Source: a virus. Taken from it: a DNA stretch of 64,000 bases. Under the pieces are notes generated by a model. That model made no database searches and was not told the origin of the DNA. It saw only the letters and a program-made list of their open reading frames with translations. The translations under genes and the position numbers were made by a program. The stretch lies in the IMG/VR virus record IMGVR_UViG_3300025018_000006, positions 16,515 to 80,514 of that record, one strand, 5' to 3'. Position 1 is the stretch's first letter. Each line of letters begins with the position of its first letter. Shown here one piece after another: positions 16,279 through 29,563 of the stretch.

Positions 16279-17196
16279 TTAATCAAATTCATTTTCATTA
16301 TCAGCTCCTCCTGGCTTTGAAATATTCTTATGAACAGTCTTTGCAACACTCTTAATTACAATGTCTTTTTCTGAAAGTTCATTGCTTATACCTGTCATTA
16401 TTGCAGTGTCCTGTCCAAGATACTTAATAGCATCCTGTCTACTCATTCCAAGAGAAACACCTTTGTACACAAATCCCCGATCAGCTTCATTAAGAATTAT
16501 ACCCAGAGCTCTTGCTGATTCAAAATATTCAGCATAACTTCTGTTTTTACTCTCCCACTTTTTATTAAAATCAAGTGGATAATTCTTTGCTGACCGAAGC
16601 AGACTACCACGAACGATTTCATAATTTGCATTATCCCGAAGTTCAATACCTAAATACCTGGCAAAATTTACCATAGATTTTGGATCGTCAAGAATTTTAT
16701 TGACTCTATCAAAAGCAACTTTCATTGATTCAATTTCATCATTTTCAACCCTTGCTTCTTCTACAGGATCATAAATCTTGTAGTACGGATTTTGATTTTG
16801 CCATGGAGATCCTTGAATGTCAGGATGGAAACGAATAGCTGCCCAAATTCTAGCATCATCTCTTTTATCAAGATTTAACGAAAGATGATCATTTAATTGA
16901 ATTTTTTGCCATTTAATGTTTCCGTAATCGTCCTGGTCAATTGCAATACCATAAAGAACACCTGTTAGCGGATCTTTCTGAAAGGTAGCAACCCGATTAG
17001 GGGTTTTATGCATATCTTCCGAGATAGGCTGGATTTCTACCCATGGAGTCATAGCCAGATTTTTTCTTTCATTCATAATCTTTTCAGCTACTTTATCAAC
17101 ATCCATTACATCATAGAGAATCTTTTTTCCCATCTCTTTTTTGGCGTGTTCCGCTATCCAACGCCTTTCTTCGATTGTGACTAATTGTTTAATCAT
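16279..17196 (-). CDS. Conserved crAss-like protein downstream of MCP
   Basis: 305 aa; synteny. Confidence 0.55.
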   Translation of the reverse strand: MIKQLVTIEERRWIAEHAKKEMGKKILYDVMDVDKVAEKIMNERKNLAMTPWVEIQPISEDMHKTPNRVATFQKDPLTGVLYGIAIDQDDYGNIKWQKIQLNDHLSLNLDKRDDARIWAAIRFHPDIQGSPWQNQNPYYKIYDPVEEARVENDEIESMKVAFDRVNKILDDPKSMVNFARYLGIELRDNANYEIVRGSLLRSAKNYPLDFNKKWESKNRSYAEYFESARALGIILNEADRGFVYKGVSLGMSRQDAIKYLGQDTAIMTGISNELSEKDIVIKSVAKTVHKNISKPGGADNENEFD

Positions 17197-22445: not shown

Positions 22446-24563
22446 TTATAATGTTTTTTTTATGTCCGGATCTGAATTTTCATTTTCATAAGAATAGCCG
22501 GGCCTCCACCTACCTTGACCTTCAGACAATTCTGATGGTGAAAATTTTTTTGTTCCTTTGCTATTTTTATCACTTTTAAGTATAGCATTTCCATTTTGAT
22601 CATGAGTCCATTCCGGATCATCATATTTTGGTGCCATTATTTCTGATGATTTTCTTGGCCTTGTTTTCATGTCATTAATACGCATAATTGCATAAGCCAA
22701 TGCATCAACGCTATCCCAGTCTGTACCTATATATTCTTCATCGTATGCTAATAAATCTCTTAGTAATTGAGGAAAATTACAGAACTGCACAAAATCCTCT
22801 ACCCATGATTGAACAACTCCAAGTATTAAAGGTTTAGAATACCCAGTCATTTTTGCTCCAAATTTATGTAATTGCTGACTCTTTGGAGAATCAAAAGCTT
22901 TTGGCCTTGGGGATAAATAAATCCTTCCATCATTTTTCAGATAATGGTCGATGACAAAATCCTGCTCGGCATTACACATGGTATTTCGTTTAAGTCCGTA
23001 CCATACCGATATTTTAAGACAGTTGTCATAAAACATTTCTTTCCTTGCCGGTCTCTGATAGTATAAGCATATCGGATATTCAGCTCTATGTATCCCTTCA
23101 TTTTCTAAATTTACTTTATTTCCTTGTCTAGCAACAATCATTGCACCCAATGAAGAACCTGATTGTGTCTGATCTTGGTTATATCCGTCAATACCACCAA
23201 TATCAAGATCAAGTATATCTTTTCTTGGTTCTTGATAAACCCAAACAATATGTCCTTCAGGATCACCTTTTTTAGCCGGACGTGCCGTTACTTCCAAAGG
23301 CATTTTTCTTCTTTTTATTCCATCCTCATCTATATCATAAACCCAGTCAAGAATCATAGGTTTGTATGAAGTTTTATCACCTTCTATATCAAAAAGACGA
23401 GAATATATTTTTTCATCATTAAAATTATTGCTTCCACCTGACGTAAAAGCTTCTTCAATTGTTAATGGATAGTTCTGATTATGTTCTTTTAATTTTTTCT
23501 TATTTGGCAACTTTGAATATTCTACCCTTTTTCTTAAAATAAAATCCTGAGCTGCTTCAATATCTTCACATCCTAATCTTTGCCACGTTTTATATTTTCT
23601 CAAATTTGGAATAGCATCTACTTTTTTCCCATCGTCAGGATCAATTAGATATTCACTTTGCTTGTTTCCAAAAAATGGAAAATAAAGACGAGTACCAGGT
23701 ACCCAGAATTTTTCTAATCCATAAGATTCAGCATTATCCCAAAATTCTTTAAAATCTTTTGAAGTTGATAATATATTTCCACCGGTACCATAAATATAGA
23801 AAGTACCTAATATCTGAGAACCAAATTCAAGTGCAGGTTTAATAGATTCAAATGCCTGGCCAAGAAGTTTAAATTGTCCAGATTCCTCAAAAACAACATC
23901 ATGAAAATATTCACCCTCGAGTTTCTTTGGATCGTCATACATTGTTTCAAAGGATAGCCTACCCCCATATCCGTCTTCAACATACCCGCCGATAGGATCT
24001 TTTCTTTCATAACCGACATGAAACATTTTATCATTATCCTTAAGAAAATTTAAACGAAGCTCATCATGAAATTTAGCTTGTGCTGCATCAAACTTTTTTC
24101 TTAAACCAACCTGATAAGTTTCAAGACCTGCTGCAATAGCACCTCTATATCCTTCAATAAATCTAATACCATGACTAAGAATTGTCTGAGCTTTTTCAGA
24201 CGCTCCTTTACGCCTGGCTTTAGGCATTACTATACCAGTCTTTTGATATTTCTTTACATAATCGACTAACTTGTAATATTCTAAATCAAGATCTACATAC
24301 ATTGGATATGTCGGGCCTCGAAGACCCTGAAGAATCACAAAGTTTAAAAAAAAATAATACCGGCCAGGAATATGTATCCCTCCGGTATCGTAACCATTTA
24401 AACAACGGTCAAACTGCTCATCCCAAAATTGTTCATAATCCCGGGTACCGATAACTTTTATATTACTTTTTCCATCGGCATAGATAGGTATATTACCCGC
24501 TACTGGCGATGGATCAAATCCTCTTCTTTTGATTAACGGTGTATATGGTTTCTGAAATCCCAT
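22446..24563 (-). CDS. terL: Terminase large subunit
   Basis: KARRKGAS Walker A, VVFEESG Walker B, GTGG, GGIDGY nuclease motif, DSVDALA. Confidence 0.9.
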   Translation of the reverse strand: MGFQKPYTPLIKRRGFDPSPVAGNIPIYADGKSNIKVIGTRDYEQFWDEQFDRCLNGYDTGGIHIPGRYYFFLNFVILQGLRGPTYPMYVDLDLEYYKLVDYVKKYQKTGIVMPKARRKGASEKAQTILSHGIRFIEGYRGAIAAGLETYQVGLRKKFDAAQAKFHDELRLNFLKDNDKMFHVGYERKDPIGGYVEDGYGGRLSFETMYDDPKKLEGEYFHDVVFEESGQFKLLGQAFESIKPALEFGSQILGTFYIYGTGGNILSTSKDFKEFWDNAESYGLEKFWVPGTRLYFPFFGNKQSEYLIDPDDGKKVDAIPNLRKYKTWQRLGCEDIEAAQDFILRKRVEYSKLPNKKKLKEHNQNYPLTIEEAFTSGGSNNFNDEKIYSRLFDIEGDKTSYKPMILDWVYDIDEDGIKRRKMPLEVTARPAKKGDPEGHIVWVYQEPRKDILDLDIGGIDGYNQDQTQSGSSLGAMIVARQGNKVNLENEGIHRAEYPICLYYQRPARKEMFYDNCLKISVWYGLKRNTMCNAEQDFVIDHYLKNDGRIYLSPRPKAFDSPKSQQLHKFGAKMTGYSKPLILGVVQSWVEDFVQFCNFPQLLRDLLAYDEEYIGTDWDSVDALAYAIMRINDMKTRPRKSSEIMAPKYDDPEWTHDQNGNAILKSDKNSKGTKKFSPSELSEGQGRWRPGYSYENENSDPDIKKTL

Positions 24564-26945: not shown

Positions 26946-27029
26946 AACGATAACGTTTTATTAATAAAAAAATATAAATACAAATATAAAAAAATCCTGG
27001 CAATATTTATATATCACCAGGATTAAGGA

Positions 27030-27206
27030 TTAGGAATGTACAAAAATCTTTGATTTTTTAACCGGAGCTTTCTTGAGTTTTTTCTTCTGCTTAGCGATAA
27101 TCTTACCGGCATCATTCAATGCTTTGTTTAGATTTTTGTTCTCAGATACAAGATCAAGAATCTTCTCTTCAAGATCTGCTTTTGTCAATTCTTTTTTTGC
27201 TGTCAT
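27030..27206 (-). CDS. Small basic coiled-coil protein (58 aa, not in track)
   Basis: MTAKKELTKADLEEKILDLVSENKNL...IFVHS; followed by ATCCTGG/CCAGGAT hairpin. Confidence 0.55.
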   Translation of the reverse strand: MTAKKELTKADLEEKILDLVSENKNLNKALNDAGKIIAKQKKKLKKAPVKKSKIFVHS

Positions 27207-27286
27207 GTTTTAAAACTTTAATTTTTACAATCGATTGTCGATGTAAATTTATTTAAAAATAAATCAATAAACAATAAATCAGTAGT

Positions 27287-27916
27287 TTAAAGTTTCAAAT
27301 CATCTGCAGTAGGCTCTATCTTATCCTCTGTTTCCGGTACCTTACTTGATGGATATGGATTAGGAGTATTAAGTCTCTTTAAATCCATTCCAAGCCACAT
27401 AATCCCTTCCTGCAATTTGGTAACCGATAAAGATTTTTCACGAGAAGGAAATCTGTCTGCACATTTCTTAACTTCTTGAAGCATATTATCAATTCCTTTT
27501 CTTAATCCTTTTATCTGAACAATCTCAGATGGTTCGGTAATTTTCTTTTCGGGAGTAAACACATCTACAATGGCTTTGAAAAGAGCATCTTTCTTTCTTT
27601 GAAATTCCGGTAAGTCATCATAAGGAACAAGGCATGGATGAGTCTTTACTTCAGGATCTTTTTCCTCACCAAGAATCCAACCGTCTTCAATTTTTTCAAT
27701 CATCCAATTATCATGCATCTTCTTATCTGTAACAAACGGATTATTCAAACGAAAAGCAACTCCATTATATGCAGATTGCTGCTGCCATTTTGGTGCATTA
27801 TCCCAATCAAACTGTGAAAAATCTCCATTGTTTTCACAATATGCTTTATTTGCCTGATGACAAATTTTAGCTATTTCCAATATAGGCTCAGGACTAAATA
27901 CCTCTCTTTTTTCCAT
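27287..27916 (-). CDS. RyR-domain protein fused to an Acb2/Tad1-like helical hairpin
   Basis: HDNWM..KIEDGW...KTHPCLVPYDDLPEFQRKKD (RyR); SREKSLSVTKLQEGIMWL. Confidence 0.7.
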   Translation of the reverse strand: MEKREVFSPEPILEIAKICHQANKAYCENNGDFSQFDWDNAPKWQQQSAYNGVAFRLNNPFVTDKKMHDNWMIEKIEDGWILGEEKDPEVKTHPCLVPYDDLPEFQRKKDALFKAIVDVFTPEKKITEPSEIVQIKGLRKGIDNMLQEVKKCADRFPSREKSLSVTKLQEGIMWLGMDLKRLNTPNPYPSSKVPETEDKIEPTADDLKL

Positions 27917-27920
27917 AATT

Positions 27921-28118
27921 CTATCTTTTATTAGTTAATAATACTGCTAATCCCCATAAAATCACGTCAAATACAGCTGTTGCAATATGCCAGATAAGAA
28001 TCCACAACAAAGCCGTTCCAAATGTATCAGGTTTAGTTTTGTTAAAAGTAACAATACCTATCACTATCCACATTACTAACATTAACGCTGTAAATATACA
28101 TGATGAATATTCTTTCAT
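27921..28118 (-). CDS. Small membrane protein
   Basis: 65 aa, two TM helices. Confidence 0.55.
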   Translation of the reverse strand: MKEYSSCIFTALMLVMWIVIGIVTFNKTKPDTFGTALLWILIWHIATAVFDVILWGLAVLLTNKR

Positions 28119-28127
28119 AATTTTTAT

Positions 28128-28379
28128 TTAATTAATTTTCTCAATAAGTAATTCTGATTTATGCACGTTAGGAGGTCTGAATCCGTGCTTTCGGAAGTTT
28201 ACAACAATATCATTCCATTGATCATGCGATAAAACATCTCTCCATTCAGGTTTGTTATGTATTGAACAAAAATGTTTCTTCACACCTGTCTTTTGTAAGA
28301 AAGTTTCATTCTCATCTTTTAATACTAACCTGACTGTAATCGTTGCCAGATTATCGCAGTATCTCTGATCGCATGTCAT
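28128..28379 (-). CDS. Small putative Zn-binding protein
   Basis: CxxxxC...CxxH. Confidence 0.5.
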   Translation of the reverse strand: MTCDQRYCDNLATITVRLVLKDENETFLQKTGVKKHFCSIHNKPEWRDVLSHDQWNDIVVNFRKHGFRPPNVHKSELLIEKIN

Positions 28380-28756
28380 AAGCTTATAATTGAATCGTGA
28401 ATAGATTTATCGTAATATTTTGTTGCTCCAAACAGATTCATAATCACAGCTTCTTCACACCTCTCTACAAAACCTCTATATCTCCACTTGAAGTTTTTAA
28501 CTCCATACTGTTCTTCTACCTGAAAATTTGTTTTGGAAAGCTGACCTTCTTTAGTCAGATTGGTTATCGCCCGACGAACAGAAGTAATCGGTGCCCCGGG
28601 AAGAACCTGCTTCTGAATCTCAAACGGAATGAATGATTTACCTTTATTGATATAAAAGAACCACAATATCTTCTCCTGTTGAGCCTCAGCATTCCGCCGA
28701 AGCTTAGTAAGCGACGTACCACTCTCATAAATAGTGTTGTAAAAATCTTCATTCAT
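28376..28756 (-). CDS. Winged-HTH DNA-binding protein
   Basis: PITSVRRAITNLTKEGQLSKT. Confidence 0.65.
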   Translation of the reverse strand: MNEDFYNTIYESGTSLTKLRRNAEAQQEKILWFFYINKGKSFIPFEIQKQVLPGAPITSVRRAITNLTKEGQLSKTNFQVEEQYGVKNFKWRYRGFVERCEEAVIMNLFGATKYYDKSIHDSIISL

Positions 28757-28881
28757 TTTTTTTGTTCCCCTTTTAAATTTAGCTAAGATTTACCAGAGAG
28801 TAACATAGGAAATGTCACGAACCTACGCTTAGGCAACTCTCTGGAAAATCATTAACCTGTCCTTATGGAAGTAGACATATC

Positions 28882-29280
28882 TTAATTCAATAAATGTTCT
28901 AATCCCTGATAACCACCCATGTGCTTTTTCTGCACATAAGTATCCTGATTCTTCATGGCAAACATATTCCAACTCCATATATCTTCAAAGACAATTACAC
29001 TAACTATCTTTAATGGATTGTTTTTACCACCTGAAAAAGTCCTGATAGACGTTTCAATAACAGTTATCTCACCAAACTCAGGCTTGAATACACTATTGGC
29101 AAAACCCCTAATGTAATCATCTCCCATATTCTCAATCTCACCAACTGCATTGAATATACCCTTTATCCTAAAAGAACGCATCTGTTCTTTAGTAAATTCT
29201 ACATCACGAGCCTTTATAGTCCGTAACTCCCTATCAAAATCTTCTTTACCGTAAGTCATACTTTCTTTGTATTTTTCCAT
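28882..29280 (-). CDS. Hypothetical protein
   Basis: 132-aa ORF in operon orientation. Confidence 0.55.
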   Translation of the reverse strand: MEKYKESMTYGKEDFDRELRTIKARDVEFTKEQMRSFRIKGIFNAVGEIENMGDDYIRGFANSVFKPEFGEITVIETSIRTFSGGKNNPLKIVSVIVFEDIWSWNMFAMKNQDTYVQKKHMGGYQGLEHLLN

Positions 29281-29338
29281 TTATAAATTGATTTAAAAGT
29301 TCGAAAAAGTGAATAACTTCGTTAGTAACAATCACCTT

Positions 29339-29563
29339 TTAATCAACCTCCAAATCATCAAAGTCATCATCATTCCACTTATTAACATCATTCAATCCCT
29401 TCAGTAATATCATCCTCTCATAAGCATGATCAGCTAACACATTCCTTATAAATACAGAAAACGGCCTCCTCTTACCTTCCTCATTTACCGGACCCTCCTT
29501 CTTATGTAAGTAACGAAGCTTGTCCAATAACTCCTGGTCAAAATTAATTAACAGTTTCTTCAT
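29339..29563 (-). CDS. Ribbon-helix-helix regulator
   Basis: KKLLINFDQELLDKL...FSVFIRNVL: strand-helix-helix pattern. Confidence 0.65.
   Translation of the reverse strand: MKKLLINFDQELLDKLRYLHKKEGPVNEEGKRRPFSVFIRNVLADHAYERMILLKGLNDVNKWNDDDFDDLEVD

Follow-up and report, generated by a model that had tools for sequence, protein, structure and literature searches.

The window analysed here is a stretch of 64,000 nucleotides of a viral genome (IMG/VR record IMGVR_UViG_3300025018_000006, positions 16,515 to 80,514), and its positions 27287-27916 are exactly one open reading frame on the minus strand, encoding 209 amino acids plus a stop codon (27287-27289). From its amino to its carboxyl end, the protein carries an RyR (Repeat12-like) domain, a linker, a helical hairpin of the Acb2/Tad1 type and a conserved tail. 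The phage is a complete crAss-like genome of 80.5 kb, and its TerL proved crAss-like at 23-25% identity in a protein-level search. When 24 kb from the window were compared by megablast with 50,697 phage records, no match was obtained.

The fusion gene starts 4 nt past the stop of an upstream ORF for a 65-aa membrane protein. The next ORF after it is a small one (27030-27206), behind which lies a terminator-like hairpin on the minus strand (26993-27024; a 14-pair stem and a T-run, found by a consensus scan only) that is probably the end of a small-gene operon containing the fusion gene. Among the ten neighbouring ORFs compared with Pfam and PHROGs, the named matches were an exonuclease and TerL only, and no recognised anti-defence gene was found. 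For the 209-aa fusion protein itself, NCBIfam and PADLOC returned nothing and PHROGs returned function-unknown families only. When the genome of the phage was searched in six frames, the hairpin (30.8 bits) and the RyR domain (47.1 bits) each turned up at the fusion gene only, and neither a Tad2-like gene nor an NAPRTase-family (Namat-like) gene was found in that genome.

RyR domain

The RyR domain (residues 9-120; 27557-27892, minus strand) was delimited by Pfam, the AF2 model, Foldseek and alignments to two characterised phage proteins, RyDEP and RyR Tad. A sequence-only reading of the same DNA had claimed a clear RyR repeat, and this was borne out by Pfam RyR PF02026 at residues 65-110, with 46.6 bits against a cut-off of 27.4 (E 4.3e-12). 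The AF2 model of the whole protein has a mean pLDDT of 85.6, with 92-97 in the RyR blocks, and the domain consists of helices 9-29, 43-58, 64-77 and 104-120 plus a short beta region. Foldseek with the whole model gave RyR structures only (6uhi, E 4.9e-4), because the small hairpin is overshadowed; the RyR structure 3nrt_A was found with probability 1.00 and an rmsd of 3.1 over 68 columns.

Two 2026 preprints report experiments on phage proteins of this family. RyDEP (Mycobacterium phage DyoEdafos gp78) is reported to cleave 2'/3'cADPR, and six of eight tested RyDEP homologues to bind 2'/3'cADPR, while two did not (PMC13232231). RyR Tad (Pectobacterium phage vB_PatP_CB1 gp68) is reported to sequester 1''-3' gcADPR with a Kd of 43 nM (10.64898/2026.06.04.730250). 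The suggestion that the phage RyR domain acts in nucleotide-signal sequestration, made from the sequence alone, thus has support from experiments on homologues in both preprints.

The RyR half is 49% identical to residues 77-181 of RyR Tad over 106 residues (E 1e-34), and all six ligand residues of that protein are kept: H129, W132, K147, H154, K170 and D171 align to H68, W71, K86, H93, K109 and D110 of the fusion. Identity to RyDEP is 32%, and in the BLASTP alignment H75, W78, H100 and D117 of RyDEP face H68, W71, H93 and D110, so that the RyDEP His/Asp catalytic dyad H75/D117 corresponds to H68/D110. RyDEP Q54 aligns to A49 and is not kept, in a part where the BLASTP alignment is weak. When 39 fusion sequences were aligned, H68, W71, K86 and K109 were invariant and H93 and D110 were at least 90% conserved. 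Many RyR proteins of 114-150 aa stand alone.

Linker, hairpin module and tail

The linker (residues 121-130; 27527-27556, minus strand) is modelled with low confidence (pLDDT 65) and falls in gap-rich columns of the fusion alignment, where its length and sequence vary among homologues. It is followed by the hairpin (residues 131-181; 27374-27526, minus strand), whose two helices, 131-155 and 159-181, have pLDDT values of 86-98. The hairpin was recognised from Pfam, profile searches, the AF2 model, the alignment to CmTad1 and co-folding.

The sequence-only reading had also placed an Acb2/Tad1-like hairpin behind the RyR repeat. Pfam Acb2_Tad1_hairpin (PF24729) does match residues 128-175, at a marginal 28.7 bits, 1.7 bits over the cut-off of 27 (E 1.5e-6), and profiles of the C-terminal module, searched against 177,635 PDB sequences, reached CmTad1 with E 1.1e-5 and 4.1e-6. 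The same searches gave CbTad1 at E 0.029 and Acb2 homolog 43 at E 0.19-0.66, and no PaMx33-type Acb2 chain at E <= 10; the canonical Acb2 of that type is described as having a dinucleotide pocket of Y11, L14 and P90 (10.1101/2025.08.24.671296). Residues 158-175 of the fusion protein are SREKSLSVTKLQEGIMWL, and phmmer aligned residues 156-177 to CmTad1 (PDB 8kbb, chain positions 95-116), which bears out approximately the Tad1 motif given in the sequence-only reading.

In this alignment R159 and T166 of the fusion correspond to the pair R88/T95 of CmTad1. Five of the six hexamer-interface residues of CmTad1 are identical (K96, Q98, E99, M102 and W103, facing K167, Q169, E170, M173 and W174), and the sixth differs, K106 being aligned to M177. 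All 40 of the module sequences aligned have Arg and Thr at the R159/T166 positions, and the helix-1 residues K136, R139, D143 and Q147 are strongly conserved in the module alignments together with the tail. In Tad1 the Arg/Thr pair (R88/T95 in CmTad1, R90/T97 in CbTad1) is reported to bind the phosphates of cyclic trinucleotides and also to be involved in hexamer formation (PMC10680739); because the same two residues serve both, their conservation is not proof of ligand binding.

The tail (residues 182-209; 27290-27373, minus strand), of the NPYP...IEPTAD.LKL type, was defined from alignment columns. It hardly varies among homologues, whether fused or stand-alone, with columns invariant in three alignments, and is disordered in the monomer models (pLDDT 42-54).

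When the C-terminal module alone was searched with Foldseek, as had been proposed as a check against Tad1 and Acb2, CmTad1 ranked first and superposed on 46-47 residues with an rmsd of 1.2-1.8 A, but its E of 0.8-1.2 is not significant. VIA-align gave Z 7.5-8.6 to unrelated hairpins (EncB, FemA, designed bundles), with neither Tad1 nor Acb2 among its best 50 rows. Generic hairpins thus score as well in these model comparisons; the fold is a generic one that alone cannot settle membership, and sequence profiles were used instead. At the sequence level the match of the module to Tad1 is specific, and by the alignments the last ~80 residues make up a complete Acb2-family module.

Self-association of the module in silico

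Co-folding was done with three copies of the C-terminal module, half the number of a hexamer, and gave an ipSAE of 0.80 against 0.10 for the best control. At least 93% of contacts agreed between the three-copy runs, and the partner pLDDT was at least 70. In the benchmark, 20 of 30 solved homo-pairs came up to the mark, as did one of 23 single chains. Three copies of the module thus passed it, though the pass may stem from the memory of, or likeness to, solved Tad1/Acb2 hexamers. The best three-copy contacts include residue 23 with residue 23, which in this model would read as a two-fold interface.

Distribution of the fusion and of its parts

About 39 related proteins and six IMG/VR viral contigs carry the fusion too. 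Both Pfam domains (PF24729 and PF02026) were found in 32 of the 120 homologues listed, and for this reason the co-occurrence of RyR and hairpin is beyond chance, although the hairpin score is marginal. The genes flanking the fusion are shared with this phage at only one of the six IMG/VR loci that carry the full fusion, a sign of mobility.

The module also exists by itself: at least 1,175 protein clusters match it, with lengths of 49-158 aa, and most of the listed ones have 79-91 aa. These stand-alone proteins begin at helix 1 and are up to 80% identical to the C-terminal module, tail included; they are annotated PF24729, and many of the clusters lie on crAss-like contigs. Among 67 longer proteins, the N-terminal partners of the module included RyR (23), crAss001_48-related (6), WDGH (2) and Tad2-like (1) domains. 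The free module of Tenacibaculum phage Gundel_1 adjoins a gene of the DUF2829/Tad2 family. The RyR domain, for its part, is elsewhere fused to a Tad2-like domain and to the T7 gp5.9 RecBCD-inhibitor domain, as well as to hairpins that are of a different subtype or stand in reverse order.

A quick tree was built from 121 RyR domains over 109 columns (one of 122 rows was dropped for gaps, and three labels missed by the motif pattern were set by hand). It needed 12 changes between the labels fused and free, of which at least four were forced by supported branches. The tree is poorly resolved, with eight of 118 inner branches well supported, and among its rows labelled 'alone' are other fusions and perhaps some truncated ORFs. 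The label changes give a weak hint of repeated fusion or shuffling.

Proposed function and alternatives

We consider it fairly probable that the fusion is a two-module counter-defence protein, in which an RyR cADPR sponge is joined to a hairpin sponge for cyclic trinucleotides, possibly in a Tad1-like trimer of dimers, and it probably blunts both Thoeris and CBASS. Both halves belong to known kinds; what is new is their combination. The two-headed sponge that had been proposed from the sequence is backed in silico by the complete module, the Arg/Thr pair and the self-association, and the independent occurrence of both modules and their fusions to other anti-defence domains speak for it as well; taken alone, the hairpin fold is generic.

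The first module (residues 9-120), of the RyDEP/RyR Tad family, would bind the Thoeris signals 3'cADPR and 2'cADPR in a predicted pocket of H68, W71, K86, H93, K109 and D110, most likely as a sponge; RyDEP-like hydrolysis is possible and less likely. The second module (about residues 128-209), an Acb2-family unit that also exists free at ~80 aa, would self-associate through its two long helices, with R159 and T166 lining a three-fold pocket for the CBASS cyclic trinucleotides cA3 and cAAG, as in CmTad1 and Acb2. Since RyR-family proteins form dimers and hairpins gather with three-fold symmetry, the full-length protein is, by analogy, possibly a trimer of dimers as in Tad1 and would then have six sites for cADPR and two for cyclic trinucleotides. 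What the analysis shows is which domains are present, how their residues are conserved, that both modules occur on their own and that module 2 self-associates in silico; the stoichiometry, the ligands and the in-vivo effect we infer. The specificity of a sponge is not readable from family membership, because Acb2_43 is reported to bind 3'cADPR without CBASS inhibition (10.1101/2025.08.24.671296) and the two RyDEP homologues mentioned above did not bind cADPR signals.

An alternative that we regard as unlikely makes the RyR half the sole anti-Thoeris head and the hairpin an oligomerisation scaffold for avidity or stability, or the binder of a ligand other than a trinucleotide (such as 3'cADPR, or a dinucleotide in the kind of vertex pocket that Acb2 homologues have). 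The joining of the module to several unrelated N-terminal domains is the pattern expected of a general scaffold, Acb2_43 has the same hexamer architecture and takes 3'cADPR instead of CBASS signals, and the conserved tail with K136, R139, D143 and Q147 suggests a pocket beyond that of CmTad1. A pure scaffold, however, would have no reason to stand alone, as the module does in its many free clusters, and the invariance of the Arg/Thr pair that binds trinucleotides in CmTad1 also speaks against this alternative, with the reservation that the pair also serves Tad1 hexamer formation.

It is improbable that the RyR half is an active inverting glycosidase of the RyDEP type, which would turn 2'/3'cADPR into linear ADPR while the hairpin sequesters a second signal. 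The alignment of the catalytic dyad, with W78 and H100 kept too, is what such an enzyme would show, but none of the eight other RyDEP homologues tested is reported to have cleaved 2'/3'cADPR, despite high conservation (PMC13232231). The domain is also closer to the sponge RyR Tad than to RyDEP, and RyDEP Q54 is not conserved. As the search of the phage genome yielded no match to the NAPRTase family, this phage lacks the NARP1 setting in which DyoEdafos can profit from cleavage.

Very improbable is a protein without any counter-defence role, whose RyR domain binds ATP, ADP or another adenine nucleotide for phage metabolism or regulation and whose hairpin is a coincidental coiled coil: animal RyR Repeat12 domains are reported to bind ATP analogues and drugs (PMC13232231; 10.64898/2026.06.04.730250) and the gene has recombination/exonuclease genes and TerL as neighbours and sits outside a recognised anti-defence island, among small genes that are all function-unknown, but every gcADPR-contacting residue of an experimentally proven sponge is kept, RyR is repeatedly fused to Tad2-like, gp5.9 and Acb2/Tad1 modules, and the Tad1 profile match is sequence-specific.

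Signal sponges decide phage growth on hosts armed with Thoeris or CBASS. If the two-module sponge is real, one small gene would disarm both systems, which would be useful for the understanding of phage host range, and from the genomic side the fusion independently backs the role recently reported for phage RyR domains.

Comparison with known systems

RyR Tad is, like the fusion, a two-domain protein encoded beside replication/recombination genes. It is reported to be a dimer with its RyR domain C-terminal, behind an N-terminal domain showing no activity (10.64898/2026.06.04.730250), whereas in the fusion RyR is N-terminal and the hairpin follows. RyDEP (PDB 35TM) has Pfam PF02026 in common with the fusion, and counterparts of its adenine-/phosphate-contacting and dyad residues are present as H68, D110, W71 and H93. 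It is described as a single-domain glycosidase of 138 aa inside a NARP1 NAD+-synthesis operon (PMC13232231), and the fusion differs in its limited identity, the replaced Q54, the NAPRTase gene not found in its genome and the second module attached.

With Tad1 (CmTad1 8kbb/8kbc, CbTad1 7uav) the fusion has in common the hairpin signature Arg...Thr-Lys-x-Gln-Glu...Met-Trp, in a match limited to chain positions 85-116 of CmTad1. The Tad1 hairpin is reported as a trimeric interface that binds cA3/cAAG, and the layout of Tad1, a gcADPR-binding head and a hairpin in a trimer of dimers that offers 6 + 2 sites, has the same overall logic as the fusion (PMC10680739). The Tad1 head, in contrast, is an antiparallel beta-sheet with gcADPR at the dimer interface (PMC10680739), while that of the fusion is an unrelated, all-helical RyR domain. 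A full-length Tad1 orthologue was therefore rejected, the N-terminal beta-sheet head being absent; with a helical head and a match in the hairpin only, the fusion would be Tad1-like in its working. The Acb2 family, represented by Acb2 homolog 43 (PDB 9PTQ), is described as ~80-aa units of two long antiparallel helices that form hexamers (10.1101/2025.08.24.671296). Module 2 resembles these units in size and in its two long antiparallel helices, but its sequence match to 9PTQ is weak, and its subfamily has its own invariant proline-rich tail.

A wider reading, offered tentatively and somewhat short of probable, is that the dual specificity of Tad1 has been rebuilt here from other parts, with six RyR-dimer cADPR sites and two hairpin-trimer sites in a D3 hexamer, and that the proline-tailed module is a reusable sponge chassis for interchangeable N-terminal domains (RyR, Tad2-like, crAss001_48-related, WDGH and others). 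If so, this would suggest that Tad1 arose likewise and that the uncharacterised partner domains are new signal-binding domains. In Bacteroidota phages, whose counter-defence has received little study, the other N-terminal domains on the module may be new anti-defence domains that bind nucleotides.

Acb4-Sequestin of Pseudomonas phage Ab09 is likewise reported as a natural fusion of two sponge families and binds 2',3'-cAA (10.64898/2026.06.04.730250); both of its families differ from RyR and the Acb2/Tad1 hairpin. No mention of the RyR and Acb2/Tad1-hairpin pair was found in the accessible text of that preprint, and no description of such a fusion in the literature searched, which did not extend to supplements; Supplementary Table 1 of PMC13232231, for example, with the identities of H1-H8 and the 'R12-like domains' purified, may bear on this. 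As the RyDEP homologue H4 comes from a Ruegeria phage, one Ruegeria record was compared, and in that phage, DSS3phi2, the RyR protein gp53 is a stand-alone protein of 122 aa.

Domain architecture of the fusion protein

The gene at 27287-27916 on the minus strand is exactly one ORF, encoding a protein of 209 aa. The Pfam search placed an RyR domain (PF02026) at residues 65-110, with 46.6 bits against a cut-off of 27.4, and the Acb2_Tad1_hairpin domain (PF24729) at residues 128-175, with a marginal 28.7 bits against a cut-off of 27. The marginal hairpin score is backed by matches to the solved sponge CmTad1 and by homologues carrying both domains. CmTad1 was the sole PDB match to the last 90 residues (phmmer, E 0.08), and profiles of the C-terminal module (residues ~128-209) built from 13 and 40 sequences retrieved it at E 1.1e-5 and 4.1e-6, followed by CbTad1 (E 0.029-0.12) and Acb2 homolog 43 (E 0.19-0.66). 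Both Pfam domains were present in 32 of the 120 listed homologues, and the alignment spans the hairpin in 7 more. These results confirmed the RyR repeat and Acb2/Tad1-like hairpin that the sequence-only reading had described in this ORF, quoting a peptide that corresponds to residues 158-175. The architecture is common to approximately 39 proteins of 196-264 aa with 39-70% identity.

The RyR half

In the AlphaFold2 model of the fusion protein, built with a 39-sequence alignment (mean pLDDT 85.6), residues 9-120 form four helices at pLDDT 92-97. Foldseek searches with this model matched only ryanodine-receptor repeats and a Bacteroides thetaiotaomicron RyR protein.

Two phage RyR-domain proteins have been described in preprints dating from mid-2026. 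RyR Tad, gp68 of Pectobacterium phage vB_PatP_CB1, is reported as a dimeric sponge of 1''-3' gcADPR (Kd 43 nM), whose binding requires H129/W132, K147/H154 and K170/D171 (10.64898/2026.06.04.730250). [quoted passage not shown]

Residues 15-120 of the fusion protein are 49% identical to gp68 (E 1e-34), and the six binding residues of RyR Tad all align, as H68, W71, K86, H93, K109 and D110. Identity of the RyR half to RyDEP is 32%; H75, W78, H100 and D117 of RyDEP correspond to H68, W71, H93 and D110, but Q54 is not kept, being aligned with A49. Across the 39 fusion sequences, conservation of the aligned ligand residues is complete or at least 90%. The RyR half can be predicted with high confidence to bind cADPR-type Thoeris signals. 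It is more likely a sponge than an enzyme, because it is closer to RyR Tad than to RyDEP, no other tested RyDEP homologue cleaved the signals, and the phage genome carries no NAPRTase-type gene, which would recycle ADPR. The suggestion, made before any database search, that the phage RyR domain acts in nucleotide-signal sequestration anticipated what the two preprints report for homologues.

The C-terminal hairpin module

The module's helical hairpin, composed of residues 131-155 and 159-181, is modelled with confidence (pLDDT 82-98). The tail, residues 182-209, is disordered in the monomer models, yet its residues rank among the best conserved in the family. At least 1,175 clusters of 49-158 aa match the module at E <= 1e-3; among the clusters listed, all carry PF24729 and most are 79-91 aa long. 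Stand-alone clusters reach 80% identity over 88-99% of the module, tail included, and the free proteins begin at the first helix; the module is a complete protein by itself. Among cultured or named phages, small ORFs of this kind occur in the crAss-like phages cr111_1 and ctcc615, Bacteroides phage BK735P4 and Tenacibaculum phage Gundel_1, where the gene adjoins a DUF2829 (Tad2-family) gene.

In CmTad1, R88 and T95 grip the phosphates of cA3 and cAAG at a trimeric interface, and K96, Q98, E99, M102, W103 and K106 of the same helix build the hexamer (PMC10680739). The HMMER alignment places R159, T166, K167, Q169, E170, M173 and W174 of the fusion protein at R88, T95, K96, Q98, E99, M102 and W103; only K106 differs, being aligned to M177. 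The R and T of the trinucleotide pair are invariant in all 40 module sequences.

When the module was co-folded in three copies, the ipSAE was 0.80, whereas the best of the three controls reached 0.10; contact agreement between runs was at least 93% and partner pLDDT at least 70. Of 30 solved homo-pairs, 20 attained this mark, as did 1 of 23 single chains, and the result supports predicted self-association of the module. This pass may reflect likeness to the solved Tad1/Acb2 hexamers, and the model covered three copies. In Foldseek, the module alone matched CmTad1 with an rmsd of 1.2-1.8 A over 46-47 residues but at E 0.8. Unrelated hairpins scored Z 7.5-8.6 in VIA-align; the modelled fold is generic, which counts against the hairpin assignment. 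Acb2 homolog 43 is reported to bind 3'cADPR and not to block CBASS (10.1101/2025.08.24.671296), so ligand choice in the Acb2/Tad1 hairpin families is not predictable.

Proposed mechanism and relation to known sponges

The proposed mechanism starts from what was observed: the identity of the two domains, the conservation of ligand and interface residues, the occurrence of each module on its own, and self-association in silico. The RyR head would sequester 3'/2'cADPR, and the hairpins would assemble about a three-fold axis, with R159/T166 binding cyclic trinucleotides. Since RyDEP and RyR Tad are dimers, the whole protein may form a Tad1-like trimer of dimers; that of Tad1 simultaneously accommodates six gcADPR and two trinucleotides (PMC10680739). 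Speculatively, the conserved tail may close one more pocket.

The fusion protein would work like Tad1, but its head has a different fold, and it is therefore not a Tad1 orthologue. Its first half belongs to the RyDEP/RyR Tad family and its second half to the Acb2/Tad1 hairpin family; each family is known, as is the role of RyR domains in homologues from the two preprints. A sponge-sponge fusion has a precedent in Acb4-Sequestin (10.64898/2026.06.04.730250). No description of the RyR and Acb2/Tad1-hairpin pair was found in the main texts of the literature searched. New are the natural RyR and Acb2-type fusion, its likely Tad1-like assembly and, in Bacteroidota-type phages, a large and uncharacterised group of tailed hairpin proteins.

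Distribution and possible domain shuffling

The full fusion was found on six IMG/VR contigs with 46-56% identity. Only one, L036, is a relative of the phage, with a 65% identical TerL and the exonuclease and flanking genes in common. The other five share the fusion gene alone, L038 having one further ORF in common, and in two of them the gene has a RecT-like gene on one side and an SSB gene on the other.

Among the 67 longer proteins with the module, the partners were RyR (23), crAss001_48-related (6), WDGH (2) and Tad2-like (1) domains. The N-terminal part of many lacks a Pfam domain, and a common form of 135-145 aa has an unassigned N-terminal extension. The tailed hairpin is a C-terminal add-on in database proteins P0247, P0268, P0289 and others. 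RyR is also joined to a different hairpin subtype, e.g., in SUFG_00048 of the cultured Sulfitobacter phage phiCB2047-B, and P0078 has the reverse domain order. The fusion partner of RyR is a Tad2-like domain (PF11195, 67.6 bits) in P0039 and a T7 gp5.9 RecBCD-inhibitor domain (PF25708, 59.8 bits) in P0074; their RyR domains are 54-55% identical to that of the fusion protein over the matched part, and both look like multi-target counter-defence fusions.

A quick, poorly resolved RyR-domain tree required at least four well-supported changes between fused and free states. The RyR half of the fusion protein clusters there with free RyR proteins, outside a 19-member all-fusion clade that carries the C-terminal modules closest to its own (80-82% identity), which hints at domain shuffling between fusions. 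The unrelated flanks, varied partners, reverse order and fused/free changes form a pattern of shuffled counter-defence modules.

One 90,582-bp IMG/VR contig has two RyR matches (L019 and L021) approximately 14 kb apart on opposite strands, each 60% identical to fusion residues 10-117. Pseudomonas phage LKA5 gp45 (L101:2486-3358, 290 aa) has an N-terminal RyR domain, no Pfam match in its C-terminal 190 residues, and lies among Hollowayvirus capsid and structural genes.

Locus and phage genome

The IMG/VR source record is 80,514 bp long with 33% G+C, has direct terminal repeats with a 127-bp terminal overlap, and is rated 100% complete. Megablast of 24 kb of the window found no DNA-level relatives among 50,697 phage records. 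TerL (window 22446-24563) is 23-25% identical to crAss-like terminases, and the 80.5-kb phage seems to represent a crAss-like lineage that branches deeply.

The fusion gene is the penultimate member of a minus-strand run of small genes (74, 132, 126, 83, 65, 209 and 58 aa) closed by a terminator-like hairpin at 27024-26993 on the same strand. Encoded downstream on this strand are a protein of 351 aa, an exonuclease (phrog_298) and the large terminase. The 65-aa ORF, which resembles a two-helix membrane protein, ends 4 nt before the fusion start. The five small upstream genes of the same probable operon (window 27921-29563) match no family except phrog_9069, of unknown function, for the 126-aa ORF; they are candidates for other early or counter-defence functions. 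A perfect 12-bp palindrome, ACAATCGATTGT, lies at window 27227-27238, within the 80 nt that separate the fusion gene from the following small ORF, and could be an operator or processing site.
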